A stretch of 64,000 bases of DNA, from NCBI GenBank assembly GCA_000004985.1, contig GG738906.1. One strand, given 5' to 3'. Each line of letters begins with the position of its first letter. Position 1 is the stretch's first letter. This stretch comes from Naegleria gruberi. Lineage: Eukaryota. A program made the translations under genes and the position numbers. Of the stretch, positions 1,634 through 63,747 are shown one piece after another. The notes under the pieces are model-generated. The model was given only the letters and a program-made list of their open reading frames with translations, was not told the DNA's origin and did not search any database.

Positions 1634-3826
1634 TTATTCATCAATCATTTTGTTGTCGAGATTAATTATTTTGAGTTTATCCCTCTCATCCAAGAGCATC
1701 TTGTATCTTTCTTGAAGTTCTTTTTCTTTTTTACATAGAAGGGTTACTTCTTCTTCGAGATGAGCTAGTCTTAATGGCCCAACAGTTCTTTCTTGAGTTT
1801 GGATAAGTTTGAAATTATCTAGCTCTGATTTTGACTTTTTGATTTCTTCACTTATTCTCTTGAAATAGGTAAGCAATAATTCTTGCTTGGTTTTGAAAGT
1901 AGAGAGACCATTCTCGACTTGTTCCATTTCTTGTTTTAAAGTAGAGTAAGGTTTCTCTAGCATGTTTACAATATCTACCTTATTCGAAATAATAGGACTT
2001 TGATAGAGTTTGCGTAATTCCTCAAGCGATAAATTTTGATTTTGTTGATTCAATTCAATAGCCAACTCAATATTTGCCCTCAATAGTAAACTGGAAGGTA
2101 TGCTTAGGTTTTTTTGAGAAAATTCATGGGAAATGTCATTGTTAATCAATTGTTTCATCTCTAGTGAGATCATTTCGCTGGCTATTTTGTTATTTACATC
2201 TAGTTCCTGAGTCATTTCTTTTGATGGCACAAATACAGACATATCTTGACATGGGGTGTGAGGTTTAGGGTAATTTCGTCTTGATACGCTAGTTCTCTGA
2301 ATTAATTCATTTTGTTTTGCAACTAATTTTTCTTTTGATTTAGCCTTTTCATTTTCTCCAGCGTCTTTTTCTAAGGATTTCTTTTTAAATTCGGATTTTT
2401 CTTCATTGTTGGACTGTTTGAAAACCACAAAATCTCCACCAGTTGGTGTTGGAAGTTTGCTAAATCCCTCTTTCAAGCTTTGCTTGTGGAAATTTAAATC
2501 ATCAGTCAACTCTGTTGGAGCATATGATGGAGTATTGATTTGTAATTGATCTCTGAAAGGTGTTTGGTGAATTATTGGTGTTGATTTTACAGATGAACTT
2601 TGAATAGGAGTTGCAGAAATTGGTGTTGGATTTACAAAGATATCACTCTCCTTGGTTCTTGAAAGTTGAATAGGTGTTGGTGTACTTGAAAGTTGTTGCA
2701 ATTCTCTTAATTTTTCTCCTGTATTATCACCTTTGAGAGGTGTTCTAGTTGGTTGAATAAGAGGTGTTGCATTTGGTTTGTAATCTCCCATTAATTGTCT
2801 AGTTGCTTGATTATTTGAAAGAGAAGATGATGGTAAACTATTCATTTTCTTTCCCATTTTCACAATTTGATCCAATTCTTCATCTGTTATTTGAGGTGGT
2901 GGAAGTGATAATTTCACTTTTTTCAAGTTAACTCTTGATTCTGATATTTCATCCACTCTCTTTATAATTTCTGGAAGATTTTTATCCATTAAAATTTGGA
3001 CCTTATCCTTCTTTTTCTTTTCATTATTTTCATTTTGCTCATTTTGAATTTGAGCTAGAGCTTGAACAGAGTTACCTTCAAATGATAATAATGTTGTTTT
3101 CGTATCTTCCTCTGTAGTATCATAGAATCCAGGAGCTGGTTTTTTGTAGAAGGGAATTTCCTTATTATAATCCACAGTTGTAGATTGATTTTTTAACTTT
3201 CTCTTTTTCTTTGTGGATGGAGCAACTGTTAAACCAGCAGCTTTTAATTCTCTTTTCTTTTGCAGAGCAGCAATACGACGACCTTCTTCTAATTGTTTTT
3301 CTCTCAAATGTCGTTTAGCCTTTTTACCCTTTGTATTGGATAAACGAGCTCTAGCTTCATTTAATGTTTCCAATTCATCCTCATCCATATTAATAGGATC
3401 TGGTCTAGCTGCTTTAGTTTCTGGATTCGGATCAATTTCACCAACACGTAATTTTCTTGGATCATCACTCGAAGAGGATGACTCTCCACCTTCTTGTTTT
3501 CTTTGTTCCTCATCCAACATTTGTTCGTAATGTTCCAAACATTGACTTGCTGTTCTTCCTACAATCGGAGCTATTGATTTCCATTGACTTGGCATAATTT
3601 TTGCAAGATGCAATAGTTTTTCCTCCTCTTCTCTTGTCCATTCGGTTTTCTTTATGCTCGGATCAAGCCATTCATACCAACGAGCTTTACATTGTTTAGC
3701 AGATTTTCTATTTAACAATGAAGCCACACGAGCCCATTGGTTTTTACCATACTTCATAACGGCAGCTTTTAAAATTTCATCCTCACTATTTTTCCAAGGA
3801 CCTCCTCTTACAAATTGTTTCGGCAT
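1634..3826 (-). CDS. CDC5L: CDC5L/Cef1 Myb-domain pre-mRNA splicing factor, single exon (730 aa)
   Basis: N-terminus MPKQFVRGGPWKNSEDEILKAAVMKYGKNQWARVASLL..KSAKQCKARWYEWLDPSIKKTEWTREEEEKLLHLAKIMPSQWKSIAPIVGRTASQCLEHYEQ is the canonical CDC5 tandem Myb repeat. Long coiled-coil C-terminus. Confidence 0.9.
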   Translation of the reverse strand: MPKQFVRGGPWKNSEDEILKAAVMKYGKNQWARVASLLNRKSAKQCKARWYEWLDPSIKKTEWTREEEEKLLHLAKIMPSQWKSIAPIVGRTASQCLEHYEQMLDEEQRKQEGGESSSSSDDPRKLRVGEIDPNPETKAARPDPINMDEDELETLNEARARLSNTKGKKAKRHLREKQLEEGRRIAALQKKRELKAAGLTVAPSTKKKRKLKNQSTTVDYNKEIPFYKKPAPGFYDTTEEDTKTTLLSFEGNSVQALAQIQNEQNENNEKKKKDKVQILMDKNLPEIIKRVDEISESRVNLKKVKLSLPPPQITDEELDQIVKMGKKMNSLPSSSLSNNQATRQLMGDYKPNATPLIQPTRTPLKGDNTGEKLRELQQLSSTPTPIQLSRTKESDIFVNPTPISATPIQSSSVKSTPIIHQTPFRDQLQINTPSYAPTELTDDLNFHKQSLKEGFSKLPTPTGGDFVVFKQSNNEEKSEFKKKSLEKDAGENEKAKSKEKLVAKQNELIQRTSVSRRNYPKPHTPCQDMSVFVPSKEMTQELDVNNKIASEMISLEMKQLINNDISHEFSQKNLSIPSSLLLRANIELAIELNQQNQNLSLEELRKLYQSPIISNKVDIVNMLEKPYSTLKQEMEQVENGLSTFKTKQELLLTYFKRISEEIKKSKSELDNFKLIQTQERTVGPLRLAHLEEEVTLLCKKEKELQERYKMLLDERDKLKIINLDNKMIDE

Positions 3827-58512: not shown

Positions 58513-59728
58513 ATGAAAAGATTTATCATCAAGTTGGGAAAAGAAGGAAATGCATCAACCAAATCCGAAGGAATTTATCTATCACACATTTCCGATTTAC
58601 ACACCTGGCAACCTGAAAAGTTTGAATATCCTATCACAATAGCAAATCTAATGAAAAACAACAAATTAAAAGATTTAAAACAAATTCAAGGATTTTTAAA
58701 TGTAAAATACAATAGAGGGCCAAATTTGTATCAAGTACAGGTGTTACAAGAAACATTGCAAAAGATTTCAACATCAATCGTCACTCAACAAAATCATCAC
58801 TTGCTTGTCAGTGGGGACATTACAAACATTTCTCATTTGGAGGAATTCAAACTGGCAAAAGAAATACTTGTGGACAAATTTAAACAATTAATTGAATTAG
58901 AAAATGAAGAGGATTTATTTAAATATTGTACTCTAGTACCAGGTAAATTATCAAATATTTATAATTTAAAAGCATAATTCAGGAAATCATGATACATACA
59001 CACCATCCAGTGTTTCAGATAATTATTTTGGAAATTTCTTCAAAAATACATTGGGTCAACATTACTATCCCGAGCTATTAGAGAATAATTACTTTTTAAA
59101 ATCAAAAAATTCACAACTCACACAAGAAATGTCAAATCGATTCGTTTCCTCTCTTTATGATTTATTTCCTAATGTAAAGCTTTTACATAACACAGATGGA
59201 ACTAAGGTTTTAATAATTTCCTTATTGTCATGTGTACCAACCAAACCATTTGTTGCAGCTGGAAATATTAAAGAACAAGCACTTGTGAATGCCTCAATTT
59301 TAATCGAGAATATGAAACAGACAATGAAAGAGGAAGGTATTGATGCAGATGCACTCTTCAAGGTTGTACTCATGCATCATCCACCAATTGAACGAGCCAA
59401 AAATTCATTTAGAGAGAAACTGGATGGTCTAGATACGGCATCCAAAAAGAGAGTTCAAGATTTTTGCGAGAGGGAACGAATCGATTTGCTACTTCATGGA
59501 CATACTCATATTCCATTCAGAGGGACCATAGGAGATTCCTATAAGACACTCATAGTTGATAATGGATCTTCCACATATGTCAACATGGAAAAGCCAAACA
59601 AAATGGCCAGATTTAATACCTATCATATTAAGGGTACTCGTCTTCAAACAATAGAACAACATGTTTGGGATCCAATTTCTCAATCATTTAATGAAAGTAC
59701 AATCCTAAATACCTCCTCCGTCAATTAA
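58513..59728 (+). CDS. Calcineurin-like metallophosphoesterase (MPP superfamily); 2 exons (~58513..58942, ~58983..59728)
   Basis: MPP motifs ISDLH (GDxH-like), VSGDITN (GDxxD-like), VPG|NHD (GNHD/E split by a 40-nt intron), VLMHHPP, LLHGHTHIP (GHxH). Confidence 0.65.
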
Positions 59729-61232
59729 ATCAATTTGGCCAGTGCTCTCGAATAAAACTCTGAAACATTCTTCATCATTATCAACGCCAGCAGTAATTTC
59801 TTCTGTATAGGTTTCTTGCTTAGTTTGTTGAGTGGTAGTGGCCTTTTTCTTTTTTCTGAGCTTGTTGAAAGTAGGTTTTGTCTGTTCTTCATCATCACTT
59901 GAATCTATGCCAATTAATTTAAGTTTAGATCTCAAATATTTGAGTTCTTGTTCCAATCTCTTCTCTCTAATGTAAAGAGCACGAATAGCTTGAGCATCAA
60001 TATCATCATATTGATAGACTGTAGAGGAGTTGTTACCTTGCTGTTGTGGTTTTTTAGATAAAGAATTTAAAGCCATTGTAATAATAGAGGAAGGAGAAAG
60101 AACAGACTCATCATTAACACTTTCTGAATTAGGTGGCACAGTTGTATCAACCACCAATTTTTTAGGTTTTTCAGATGATTGGTTATTATTAACAAGTTTC
60201 ACAATATTGTTGTCAATTAGTTTTGTGCCATTATCAGCAATAGCTTCAGAGGAGGCTCCAGTGTTGGTATCAGCATAACCTGCAGTTGAACTCTTCTTAT
60301 CCTTGATGCATCTTGCAGGAATACCAACAAGGGTGCAATCACTTGGGGCATCCTTAACAACTACTGAGCCAGCTCCAATTTTAACATTTGATCCAATAAT
60401 TATATTTCCCAACACTTTTGATCCAGCTCCAACAAGTACATTATCCCCAAGAGTAGGGTGTCGTTTGCCAGTTTCCTTACCAGTACCTCCAAGTGTCACT
60501 AAATACAGAATATTATAGAAATCATGATGAATATCACATACCTCCTTGATAGAGAGTACAATAATTTCCAAGAATTGCTGTTTCTCCAATTACAACTCCA
60601 CAACCATGATCAATGAAAAATCCCTTACCAATTCTTGCACCTGGATGAATTTCAATACCAGTCCAAGATCTTGAAATAATACACATCAATTTGGCTACAA
60701 ATCTAAGAATTTTACAAGCCAAAAGCAGAAAATTACTATTCGAATTTTGAGGGTCAATAATATAGTAGAGTAAATGAGCTATTCTATAAGTGAGTATTGC
60801 CCATAATCCAGGATAGAGTATTAATTCAAGATAATTATCAAATGCAGGATCATTATCAATAATCACAGAAACGTCAGATTTGAGTTGAGACCATATAGGT
60901 TCGGAACAAACACAAACTGATTCAGTATGTTCCTCAATGGTATGTGGTTTTTGTTTTGTTGTACTGAGCTTTGAAAGAGAGTGTAACAATTGTTCTCCTT
61001 CCAAAGCTATAACTGATGGTTTTTCAGTAGGTTGATTAACAATGGGATGACTATTCTTTGAAAACGATTCGTCTTCGGAAGAATTTCCAACAGATCCCAA
61101 CACAACTAAATCAGCATATGAAGCTTTTATCTTGTTTAAAGGAGAAGAAGATGATGAACCCGAATGATGATGGAGATGCTTGGAAGAGGAGTTATCATCA
61201 GGAACAACAACTTTGTTTAGAGTGGTGCTCAT
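59705..61232 (-). CDS. cysE: Serine O-acetyltransferase (CysE-type, left-handed beta-helix hexapeptide acyltransferase) with long N- and C-terminal extensions; 2 exons (~61232..60542, ~60498..59705)
   Basis: IHPGARIGKGFFIDHGCGVVIGETAILGNYCTLYQG|VTLGGTGKETGKRHPTLGDNVLVGAGSKVLGNIIIGSNVKIGAGSVVVKDAPSDCTLVGIPAR is near-colinear with bacterial/plant SAT (..YQGVTLGGTGK..DRHPKI..GV.IGAGAKILGNI.VG..AKIGAGSVVL..VP...T..G.PAR). Split by a 43-nt GTATGT..TATTTAG intron. SATase N-domain-like ..GLWAILTYRIAHLLYY. 3' end overlaps the convergent MPP gene CDS by ~24 nt. Confidence 0.75.
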
Positions 61233-61762
61233 TGTGAGGTCTTTTTTTTGATTTTAGTGATGGATGCATTAACTCAAAAGGCTATGAATAAACACTTCAT
61301 TTCCATGGAACTTGAGAAGTGATTTTTCATTCCAGATTTTTTAATTTCCGTAAATCAAAACACAAATTTGCATTACAAAAAGCTTTAAAACTGATAATTT
61401 GACTCTAATTCAAAATGGGAATGGGACCAATGTAAGGCAGCATCTATTAGTTTTTCCCAACTCTATTGAGAGAATGCTTGAAATACTATTCTTCAATTCT
61501 TCCCAAAGATGACTACTGATGAGAAGAAAATTTACAATATGGTGCTTTTTAATAATTTCAAAGAACCATTGAGTTGCTAGAATAAGGCTTTTTCTGATTT
61601 ATTAATAAATTCGAGATAAAAAGTTATTGTACATTTTCAAGCGCCAACCATAACGATAAAAAATACCTCGATCCATCATCACTAAGGTTGTTTGAGAAAA
61701 GTTTAGCGCGCTATCAGACAACAGAAACTATTTCATACTACAAATATATATTTTCTAGGACA

Positions 61763-62518
61763 ATGGGATCAGGATTATCAAATAACCGAGCTAAAAACTC
61801 AACAGATGAACCTAAAAATCCACCAAAGAAATCATCCACTGATACAAAAGATACTAAAGCTGTAGAACAAGCAGACCAAGTTAAACGATCATCAACAGAA
61901 CCGACTAAGAATGAAACAAAACCGGAAAAGAAACCAGAAAAAAAGAAAGCATACGTTCCAGAATTTGTTTTCCACTCCGATAAGGGTAAGATTATTTTGA
62001 ACAATTCTTTTTACTAACAGTTGTATTAGATCTTTTATATGGTGATGTAGCTCTTCCATGGCAGGAATCTTACGCACTTGGATTTCATATAATAGACGAA
62101 CAACATAAAATGCTTGTAAAATTGATTAATGAACTTGCTGAGGCAGTTAGAGATGGGCATATGAGATATGAAATTGGGAGTGTGTTTGACAACTTGGTTG
62201 AGTACACTGACTTCCACTTTAAGAAGGAAGAAGAATTGATGGTAAAATATCAATACACAGAAGATGAAGAAGCTGCTCACAAGGAAAAGCATGAACTTTT
62301 TATTAAAAAAGTCTTTGACCTTAGAACAGATTTCATTAACATGACAGTGAACAATATTGGCCAAGGTATGTATTCTTGAATCAAATATTTATGGAGCAAT
62401 TTAATTCCACTTGTTAGATCTTCTTGATTTCTTAACAGATTGGTTATTGACACACATTTGTCAAACTGACAAGAAGTTATGCGATTTCCTTATTAAAAGG
62501 AATATTGTTGAAGAGTAA
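61763..62518 (+). CDS. Hemerythrin-like (HHE cation-binding) protein with N-terminal MGxxxS myristoylation consensus and Lys/Thr/Pro-rich linker; 3 exons (~61763..61985, ~62030..62365, ~62418..62518)
   Basis: Exon 1 begins MGSGLSNNRAK (Gly2, Ser6). Exons 2-3 encode DLLYGDVALPWQESYALGFHIIDEQHKMLVKLINELAEAVRDGH...LVEYTDFHFKKEEELMVKYQYTEDEEAAHKEKHELFIKKV....DLLDFLTDWLLTHICQTDKKLCDFL, the hemerythrin H..H, H...E, H...H, ..DWL.NHI pattern. Intron 1 contains TACTAAC. Confidence 0.7.
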
Positions 62519-62669
62519 ATTGATAATAATATTATGTAAATAAACATTACTATTTCATTTAAATTTTTAAATGAAATTAATTTTTCAGATGTGGTTTGCC
62601 ATACTCTGTCACAGACGGGCCATGATTCTTTGTGTGCTTCATATCGATTAATAGTTATTAGAAAAAAAA

Positions 62670-63747
62670 TGTCTGCAAGTACTCTTATGGAAAGTAGCTT
62701 CTTCAGCTCTGCAAAGTATCCCATGAAACCATATTCAAACGATACCATTACCCAAATTTTCGGATCAGTTGCCTTTCATACAGTTCTTTTCTTTGTATTC
62801 TATGCGTTATCTAGTGTAATCTTTTCAACATTTAAAACACTTGATTTTTCCAAAAAGATGGATTGGGTTTCTAGATTGGTCTCCAATTTTCATGCCATTG
62901 TATCATTTTGTGGTGCTTTGTATGCCATTCTTACCTATCCATGTTATTTGACTTGGAATTTTTCTTGTTATGATAATGGAATTGGAGAACTCACAATGAG
63001 ATACACTATTGGTTATTTCTGTAGGTATTTCATATTATTATTGTTCATCATCGGGATTCAATCTGATTGAATGTATTTTTAAATAATTATTATTTAAACA
63101 ATGAATTATTTAACAATGATAGGTTATGATCTATTATTGATTCTTGCCTTCTATAAAAAGCTTGGTAGTATTGGCATGGTGCTTCATCATGTTTTTGGAA
63201 TTCTAGGTATGTATTGTGGAATATTTATATTGGACCAACAACAATACAAGGTTGGGGTTTGATTCTTTCCTATGGTAGTTTTAGTTTTGTTGCTTTGATG
63301 TTTACTTTGACTGAAGCTACAACTCCATTCGTCAAGTAAGTTGTTAATCCCAAATTAAACATTTAATGTACATTCGAACAGTCAAAGATGGTTCTTGTAC
63401 GAATGTAAAATGAAGGAAACTTCTTTGTATGCAGCATTTGGTTTCTTACTTTGGTTGGCTTGGTCAATTGTGAGAGTTCCACTTGTACCTCTTTGCGGTT
63501 ATTACTTGTACTTGAATTATGAAGGTGAGTAGTTCTCATTCAATGATCGGGAAGTTTTTTTAATAATACGAAATTTTCCTTTCCATAAGAATTTAAACTG
63601 GTTCCTCCAGCAGTAGTTGTTGTTTGCATTTTCAATTATCTTTTGATTAGTTGTTTGAATTCCTACTGGTATTATTTAATTTCCAAAGGTTTGATTTCAG
63701 TATTGTTTGGATCAAACAAGAAAAAGGATATTAAAAAGAATGATTAA
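62670..63747 (+). CDS. TLC (TRAM/LAG1/CLN8) domain multi-pass membrane protein (TLCD/TMEM56-like); ~5 exons
   Basis: Exons encode hydrophobic helices and the TLC HH motif (GYDLLLILAFYKKLGSIGMVLHHVFGILG). GTATTT/GTATGT/GTAAGT/GTGAGT donors. Ends ..GSNKKKDIKKND. Confidence 0.5.

Follow-up and report, generated by a model that had tools for sequence, protein, structure and literature searches.

A spliced hemerythrin gene in Naegleria gruberi

The gene of interest occupies positions 61763-62518 (plus strand) of a 64,000 nucleotide (nt) stretch of Naegleria gruberi contig GG738906.1 (assembly GCA_000004985.1), referred to here as the window. The region is AT-rich eukaryotic DNA (window GC content 32%). 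Joining three exons yields a coding sequence of 660 nt, specifying a 219-residue protein that begins MGSGLSNNRAK. The protein combines three elements: (i) a predicted site of N-myristoylation at its extreme N-terminus, (ii) a long, disordered tether, and (iii) a complete hemerythrin domain.

Exon 1 (61763-61985) encodes Met1-Gly2 and the acylation motif (MGSGLSN, codons 61763-61783), the K/S/T/E/P-rich tether and the sequence PEFVFHSDK, and ends in phase 1. It is followed by intron 1 (61986-62029; 44 nt, GTAAGA..TTAG, phase 1). Exon 2 (62030-62365) accounts for the first three helices (A to C) of the four-helix hemerythrin bundle, and carries the codons of five metal ligands: H100 (62104-62106), H137 (62215-62217), E141 (62227-62229), H158 (62278-62280) and H162 (62290-62292). 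Beyond intron 2 (62366-62417; 52 nt, GTATGT..TTAG, phase 1), exon 3 (62418-62518) supplies helix D with the remaining ligands H199 (62453-62455) and D204 (62468-62470), a pocket leucine (Leu196), a cysteine four residues after the ligand aspartate (Cys208), and the stop codon TAA (62516-62518). All of these features lie on the plus strand. A reading made earlier from the letters of the window alone (the sequence-only reading) had proposed a three-exon gene here, and its coordinates coincide exactly with those of the coding sequence.

According to the list of open reading frames (ORFs), a stop codon is reached within a few codons if either intron is retained. The predicted start, the ATG at 61763, is preceded by no other in-frame ATG after an in-frame stop at 61595; the interval between upstream stop and start contains no in-frame ATG in any of five species, and the same start is found in four orthologues and in two annotations (N. 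fowleri and N. lovaniensis). No further hemerythrin copies were found within the window.

The N. gruberi NEG-M reference annotation seems to lack a model for this gene. Neither homology search returned an N. gruberi protein for it; N. gruberi-like sequence appears only as ORF fragments called in prokaryote style, which are taken from exons 1 and 2 and stem from a metagenome run (P0094, L005). Annotated N. gruberi NEG-M proteins (XP_002671293, XP_002671301 and XP_002671302) match three long ORFs of the window exactly, and the flanking serine O-acetyltransferase (SAT) and Sam50 genes are annotated, apparently unlike the hemerythrin gene. With a model probably missing from the reference, published N. 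gruberi proteomics would not have picked up its protein.

Conservation among Naegleria species

The best database match to the window protein is the 292-residue N. lovaniensis protein C9374_008278 (P0001; 69% identical), which starts MGSALSVGRK. The N. fowleri orthologue (FDP41_008763/A0A6A5BEJ1; P0049) is 301 residues long and starts MGSGLSVGRR; a splice model built by hand from N. fowleri contigs agrees exactly with the annotated FDP41_008763. The fourth orthologue lies on an environmental contig (L010, positions 2607-3357) and starts MGSALGVPKK. Both introns are found at identical codon positions in N. gruberi, N. lovaniensis and N. fowleri. Intron 1 measures 44, 57 and 123 nt in these species, respectively, and its position is shared by L010. 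Intron 2 is missing from L010, where the contiguous sequence NIGQDLLDFL equals the predicted exon 2/3 splice product of the window gene.

Alignment of the proteins of the three species revealed two conserved parts separated by a variable one. Firstly, residues M1, G2, S3, L5 and S6 are invariant, despite a barely alignable linker that measures 65 residues in the window protein, and 138 and 147 residues in the other two; all orthologues keep MGS[GA]L[SG] (MGSALSV, MGSGLSV and MGSALGV). Secondly, hardly any position varies in the hemerythrin domain or in the motif PEFVFHSDKDLL, and PEFVFHSDK is conserved as a pre-domain motif in exon 1. The Gly2 codon is GGA, GGT or GGC in the three species, and the codons of Ser3, Leu5 and Ser6 likewise show synonymous differences. 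A second N. gruberi-like strain differs from the window at 6 of 1207 nt, and both of the exonic changes are synonymous and fall in third positions. The synonymous changes, together with an N-terminus conserved against a diverged linker, therefore indicate a functional gene with selection acting on the extreme N-terminus. The gene at 61763-62518 is real and is conserved within Naegleria.

A data set labelled as a metagenome (L005 and L006; European Nucleotide Archive ERZ929261/ERR1078381, PRJEB11402) includes N. gruberi-like DNA, which matches 1.2 kb of the window at 99.5% identity.

The hemerythrin domain

Residues 83-213 form the hemerythrin domain, which is recognized by Pfam PF01814 (E=8.9e-16; 59 bits, cut-off 25.3). 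The domain scores above the cut-offs of the NCBIfam bacteriohemerythrin model NF033749 (122.6 bits, cut-off 84) and of TIGR02481 (114 bits, cut-off 51.75), and below that of the classical hemerythrin model TIGR00058 (55.6 bits, cut-off 131.85). By sequence, its best solved relatives are the Methylococcus capsulatus bacteriohemerythrin (McHr; 4xpx, 2.3e-15) and DcrH-Hr.

All seven diiron ligands (H100, H137, E141, H158, H162, H199 and D204) are present, in the pattern H-HxxxE-HxxxH-HxxxxD. The sequence-only reading had claimed a complete HHE domain with a preserved His/Glu pattern; the profile scores and the aligned ligands bear this out. Across an alignment of 36 sequences, six ligands are invariant and H158 is nearly so (at least 90%). 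The full set of invariant positions is D97, Q99, H100, H137, E141, H162, L192, W195, H199 and D204. Residue L196 aligns with the McHr pocket residue L114, which is changed in structures 4xpw, 4xpy and 4xq1 (L114F, L114A and L114Y) relative to wild-type 4xpx. The cysteine at ligand Asp + 4, Cys208, is typical of the family: it occurs in 17 of 18 eukaryote-like members and, one bacterial family apart, in 3 of ~200 other domains.

In the AlphaFold2 model (mean predicted local distance difference test score, pLDDT, of 82), helices span residues 94-116, 120-147, 152-178 and 184-213, and block means within the domain reach pLDDT 88-97. With this model as query, the top 14 Foldseek matches in the PDB are all hemerythrins, led by DcrH-Hr (3waq; target template modelling score, TM-score, 0.90; root-mean-square deviation 1.7 Å) and McHr (4xpx; 0.86). 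No second or output domain (MCP signalling, GGDEF, F-box, RING or similar) was detected by Pfam or NCBIfam. As modelled, the domain is a monomer-sized four-helix bundle of bacteriohemerythrin type, with a ligand set of the O2-binding kind and the pocket leucine. The predicted diiron site of the window protein would be expected to bind O2 and nitric oxide (NO) reversibly.

The N-terminus and the tether

The start MGSGLSN matches PROSITE PS00008, G-{EDRKHPFYW}-x-x-[STAGCN]-{P}, at Gly2 (with Ser3, Ser6 and Asn7), in agreement with the MGxxxS N-myristoylation consensus named by the sequence-only reading. A flexible region of ~70 K/T/E/P-rich residues had been described downstream, and is recovered here: residues 1-75 contain K15, S8, T7, E7, P7 and D6, and are disordered in the AlphaFold2 model, in which residues 1-80 have no predicted secondary structure (block-mean pLDDT 53-77). 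The segment preceding PEFVFHSDK comprises 65 residues, with a net charge of +6 and 14% hydrophobic residues. Taken together, the tether is ~65-80 residues long, predicted to be intrinsically disordered, net-basic, and rich in Lys, Ser, Thr and Pro. The first 20 residues contain no Cys; the nearby basic residues are R9, K11, K18, K22 and K23.

Hemerythrins of similar build

A HMMER search of 1.84 billion representative proteins produced 19,607 hemerythrin matches. Ranked by domain distance, 15 of the 16 nearest neighbours of the window domain carry eukaryote-like N-terminal extensions, and Met-Gly (MG) starts recur among these relatives. The Willaertia magna protein ABK040_003321 (P0106) begins MGSALSVKKKKK, with KKKKK as a second signal. 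A second Naegleria paralogue (B; FDP41_003544, C9374_002761 and NAEGRDRAFT_70784, P0242) begins MGGSASCMGNKQ (start MGGSASC), and the Pharyngomonas kirbyi protein (P0147) begins MGNVCLP. Four transcript-like contigs of ~1-1.4 kb (P0114, P0121, P0139 and P0226) encode the starts MGSAHC, MGNACT, MGGAVS and MGSGSSKSKR. Two apparent departures from Met-Gly (L008 and L009) are start-codon miscalls, as the DNA gives MGSAICT and MGCSAS in frame upstream. A search with a profile of the family returned mostly bacterial proteins, and added only P0246, P0247 and P0248; MGNACIS was found twice.

Gly2 is present in all 16 distinct N-termini, 13 of which fit PS00008. Among the 306 other proteins compared, mostly bacterial hemerythrins, none has the pattern and six have Gly2. 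In addition, 15 of the 16 N-termini have either a Cys in the first 10 residues (at position 3, 5, 6 or 7 in the relatives) or two or more K/R between residues 7 and 16; P0139 (MGGAVS), with one K/R and no Cys, has neither. A Gly2 accompanied by a Cys or by basic residues corresponds to the classical pairing of two signals by which acylated proteins bind membranes. The MG-type domains are only 35-50% identical, and are joined to their N-termini by linkers of 40-210 residues that are unrelated in sequence. The proposal that this is an N-myristoylated, membrane-positioned hemerythrin is strengthened by the retention of Gly2 in the orthologues and in the wider MG-type relatives, with lipidation itself a prediction. 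N-acylation and membrane tethering are, in our assessment, well supported comparatively and unproven.

The MG-type proteins of Naegleria, Willaertia and Pharyngomonas fit the bacteriohemerythrin model. To judge from these sequences, Heterolobosea hold a set of similarly built hemerythrins that comprises Naegleria paralogues A (the gene of the window) and B and the Willaertia and Pharyngomonas proteins. Within the set, the predicted acyl signals vary between myristate plus basic residues and myristate plus cysteine. The combination of Gly2 and Cys7 in paralogue B (202-206 residues) suggests dual acylation. The first 12 residues of this paralogue are identical across N. gruberi, N. fowleri and N. 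lovaniensis.

A neighbour-joining (NJ) tree of 227 domains (BLOSUM62 distances) places the 16 MG-type domains in an exclusive clade. This clade was recovered in 9 of 100 bootstraps of an 85-taxon subset, and in 0 of 100 with Kimura distances (134 aligned columns), and we do not claim that MG-type hemerythrins are monophyletic. Given the poor bootstrap values, our claim is therefore limited to nearest neighbours that share discrete characters. The remark in the sequence-only reading that hemerythrins are sporadic among eukaryotes agrees with the patchy distribution found here.

Beside the MG-type group in the distance trees lies P0176 (509 residues), in which an EF-hand-like segment follows each of two hemerythrin domains; this protein may be a eukaryotic hemerythrin with a link to calcium.

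Comparison with known hemerythrins and acylated globins

Bacteriohemerythrins (NF033749; McHr 4xpx, Desulfovibrio DcrH 2avk and 3waq) resemble the window protein in their ~130-residue domain and four-helix bundle (target TM-scores 0.86-0.90). McHr and DcrH share with it the seven ligands and the pocket leucine (L196 = McHr L114), at 31-36% identity. The window protein differs from both in being eukaryotic, in having spliceosomal introns, and in its disordered tether and N-acylation motif. McHr is free and soluble, while DcrH-Hr sits at the C-terminus of a chemoreceptor that spans the membrane. McHr has been reported to supply O2 to a membrane enzyme, the particulate methane monooxygenase (pMMO), a membrane-proximal role.

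A second group comprises bacterial hemerythrins of 189 residues with an N-terminal two-helix anchor (P0012, P0015, P0017 from Candidatus Thiodiazotropha, P0022 and P0025), which align with the window protein at 40% identity along the full length of the domain and with few gaps. These proteins have in common with it a WKPEY-type entry to the domain, a TD(K/R)KLCDFL motif at the C-terminus and, four residues after the ligand aspartate, the rare Cys. In both kinds, the only domain is a hemerythrin domain that is predicted to be held at a membrane. The predicted devices that hold it differ: a hydrophobic hairpin in the bacterial forms, and an acyl chain on a long, disordered tether in the window protein. 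These parallels between the sequences raise the idea that membrane placement could be ancestral, with only the anchor changed. We also considered the bacterial two-helix forms as the donor lineage. The C-terminal motif and the Cys are suggestive of this; the NJ trees do not place the two as sisters, and descent from these forms is unsupported and stays a hypothesis. Two bacterial proteins of 188 residues (P0258 and P0262) represent another kind of single-domain bacteriohemerythrin, again with two hydrophobic segments at the N-terminus that are predicted to form a membrane hairpin.

The same organisms also contain soluble hemerythrins of the Nfa1 type (A0A6A5BXL4 in N. fowleri; P0054 in N. gruberi), which have the fold and the ligand set of the window protein. 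They are 119 residues long and start MATTIP or MSFPIP, with neither an N-terminal extension nor Met-Gly. The soluble N. gruberi protein P0054 and the window protein align at only 34% identity, with 20 gapped positions. Nfa1-type proteins fit TIGR00058 at 133 bits, a model under whose cut-off the window protein falls. The opposite preferences for NF033749 and TIGR00058 thus identify two hemerythrin lineages in Naegleria.

Published work on Naegleria hemerythrins concerns the soluble lineage, and covers iron and copper responses, Nfa1 localization, and O2/NO binding. Recombinant N. fowleri hemerythrin (A0A6A5BXL4) is a monomer that binds O2 and NO, as followed by UV-vis/EPR spectroscopy (PMC11964265), and Nfa1 has been reported at pseudopodia and food-cups, near membranes (PMC11614482). 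The soluble proteins are cytosolic, abundant, and among those most strongly down-regulated in iron starvation; a role as a cytosolic iron pool has been proposed (PMC7326272). Surveys list five N. gruberi hemerythrins and note 'long' sequences among them, passing over their N-termini without comment.

In overall layout, the window protein resembles the acylated globins (vertebrate globin X and Caenorhabditis elegans GLB-26), in which an N-terminal extension with a myristoylation site, with or without a palmitoylation site, precedes a small metalloprotein domain that binds gas. The two kinds are unrelated in fold and cofactor (haem in globins, a non-haem diiron four-helix bundle here), making this a case of analogy rather than homology. 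Lipid-dependent localization has been demonstrated for acylated globins, whereas it is predicted for the window protein. Membrane localization of globin X needs its myristoylation and palmitoylation sites, and lipid protection or redox sensing has been proposed as its function (PMC3176823); GLB-26 is an N-myristoylated globin proposed to be a redox sensor (PMC3520999).

Neighbouring genes

The sequence-only reading had placed the hemerythrin gene next to a gene for a TLC-domain protein and near a SAT gene, and both neighbours were confirmed. Downstream on the plus strand (62669-63747) lies a gene of five exons, with introns of 102, 44, 46 and 65 nt, encoding 273 residues with a full-length TLC (TRAM/LAG1/CLN8) domain (Pfam 3.4e-26). 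Upstream, on the minus strand, is the SAT gene (XP_002671359; Hexapep).

This arrangement differs among species. In two of them the TLC gene is not found downstream; its place is taken by a RUN-domain gene in N. lovaniensis, and by a large, unassigned gene in N. fowleri. SAT lies upstream in N. gruberi, N. lovaniensis and L010, with a major facilitator superfamily (MFS) transporter gene instead in N. fowleri (4561-6431 on contig L003, against 59705-61232 in the window). As adjacency to TLC and SAT is not conserved, the neighbourhood therefore gives no functional clue, and we reject a functional link to either gene because TLC is not downstream in N. lovaniensis or N. fowleri, and SAT is not upstream in N. 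fowleri.

Two N. lovaniensis contigs, PYSW02000032.1 (L001) and PYSW02000045.1 (L002), are identical in the hemerythrin locus and SAT, and differ in their outer called genes. This points to either a duplicated segment or assembly redundancy.

Proposed function and competing explanations

The explanation that we favour, and consider reasonably probable as a whole, is that the gene encodes a myristoylated, membrane-held hemerythrin for local buffering or scavenging of O2 and NO. The signal for fatty acid attachment is conserved across amoeboflagellate relatives, and so work at a membrane, like that of membrane-bound globins, is probable. Under this proposal, Met1 would be removed and Gly2 myristoylated co-translationally. 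Myristate, aided by the nearby basic residues, would then keep the protein reversibly on the cytosolic side of the plasma membrane, or of the phagosomal membrane, as the probable sites. Given the weak second signal of the window protein (set out below), attachment of N. gruberi paralogue A is probably weak or reversible, and membrane binding may therefore be transient. The tether would let the diiron domain sample the layer beside the bilayer, where it would bind O2 and probably NO, as demonstrated for the soluble Naegleria hemerythrin. The job of the protein would most likely be local gas handling: (i) buffering O2, or handing it over to oxygen-consuming enzymes of the membrane, and/or (ii) scavenging NO and reactive species, and so protecting lipids, a role that has been proposed for acylated, membrane-bound globins. 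The specific role (buffer, scavenger or sensor) is suggested by analogy with these proteins.

The main rival retains the membrane tether and changes the job: instead of buffering or scavenging, the protein would act as a sensor or switch that reports O2, NO, redox state or iron. Its output could be a ligand-dependent myristoyl switch, a phosphorylation-driven electrostatic switch of the Ser/Thr-rich, basic tether, or the binding of a partner. Hemerythrin domains often serve as sensors in fusions with signalling modules; by fold, the window domain comes closest to the sensor domain of the DcrH chemoreceptor, and MCP or multidomain proteins make up many of the top matches. Repeated basic-Ser motifs (RKSTDSRKSID) occur in the N. 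fowleri and N. lovaniensis linkers, the Cys at ligand Asp + 4 could be redox-active, and a sensor role has been proposed for the myristoylated GLB-26 (PMC3520999). Set against these points are the lack of any output or second domain by Pfam or NCBIfam, and a linker that is conserved in composition only, not in sequence. The data do not separate sensing from simple binding, and overall we judge a sensor of this kind, and the switches by which it might act, to be unlikely.

Several observations weigh against a lipid-anchored protein, or against parts of the case for it. The second membrane signal of the window protein is weak: positions 3-16 hold two basic and two acidic residues, and no Cys. 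Three relatives (P0147 from Pharyngomonas, P0247 and P0248) have Gly2 and a Leu/Ile at position 6, which puts them outside the strict pattern, and P0154, as called, has no N-terminal extension. The 219-residue spliced protein found no match in a collection of 15 billion proteins, and the accession of the N. fowleri orthologue does not occur in the examined parts of the PMC11964265 proteome supplements. To these may be added the neighbourhood with TLC, which the other species do not keep. Finally, a literature search for a Naegleria N-myristoyltransferase (NMT) returned nothing specific, and no sequence was retrieved; NMT is a pan-eukaryotic enzyme, and on that ground its presence in Naegleria is assumed.

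Points of this kind lend themselves to a further explanation, in which the protein is a soluble, non-lipidated, cytosolic hemerythrin, its disordered extension serves interactions, regulation or turnover, and its Met-Gly start has nothing to do with NMT. A soluble protein would be in keeping with the N. gruberi N-terminus, which lacks a strong second signal, with the three relatives outside the strict consensus and the one without an extension, and with the predicted status of lipidation in the window protein. The known soluble Naegleria hemerythrins are, moreover, cytosolic and abundant (PMC7326272). However, all 16 N-termini have Gly2 followed by a small residue, across domains that are 35-50% identical and linkers of 40-210 residues that are unrelated; Gly2 is kept through synonymous codon changes, and all but one of the 16 have either a Cys or clustered basic residues near it. 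The Nfa1-type hemerythrins of the same species have MATTIP or MSFPIP starts. We hold a soluble, non-lipidated protein to be distinctly improbable, more so than a sensor.

An iron store or homeostasis protein, in which the diiron site served as an iron pool under regulation and the tether placed it near iron transporters, would accord with the strong down-regulation of soluble Naegleria hemerythrins in iron starvation and with the iron-pool role proposed for them (PMC7326272). That evidence comes from the other lineage (119 residues, TIGR00058-type, 34% identity and 20 gaps); a 25-kDa protein that carries two irons is a poor store, and the pocket leucine and full O2-type ligand set point to gas binding. 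An iron store is, in our view, very improbable. Lastly, a gene-model artefact (wrong start, wrong splicing or a pseudogene) might be suspected where the N. gruberi reference protein set has no model, and is scarcely credible given that the three exons and MG start were annotated independently in N. fowleri and N. lovaniensis, that the splice junctions are conserved and one of them is confirmed by an intron-less orthologue, that the frame is intact with all ligands kept and within-species differences synonymous, and that no in-frame ATG separates upstream stop from start in five species.

Beyond the favoured explanation of a membrane-held hemerythrin for local gas handling, a broader scenario can be drawn, which we put forward tentatively and think rather unlikely to hold in full. 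In it, lipid-anchored hemerythrins would be an old family in Heterolobosea and possibly other protists, a diiron equivalent of the membrane-bound globins, derived from two-helix-anchored bacterial forms and given their acyl anchor after transfer; its members would be membrane sensors of O2, NO or redox state, whose attachment a myristoyl switch, an electrostatic switch or the conserved Cys would control.

Significance

The combination of this known fold with this known, here predicted, targeting device is without earlier description in the literature covered. No lipid-anchored hemerythrin is described among 8 million full texts, in which hemerythrin and myristoyl or palmitoyl appear together as unrelated co-mentions (one relevant classification, published in Metallomics in 2022, lies outside this coverage), and the accessions of the family are mentioned in no paper of the same collection. 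If confirmed, the protein would be, to our knowledge, the first lipid-anchored hemerythrin.

If the proposal is true, the protein would parallel globin X by convergence, and would suggest that a gas-binding protein at the membrane is a recurrent solution. Naegleria hemerythrins also matter in practice: Nfa1 is regarded as an antigen associated with virulence, and the soluble forms show strong responses to iron and copper. The second, bacteriohemerythrin-type lineage to which the gene belongs is conserved in N. fowleri (FDP41_008763 and FDP41_003544), a pathogen that is lethal to humans. The predicted membrane site would, if true, place these proteins where O2-dependent lipid enzymes work, and where NO and oxidants from the host act.

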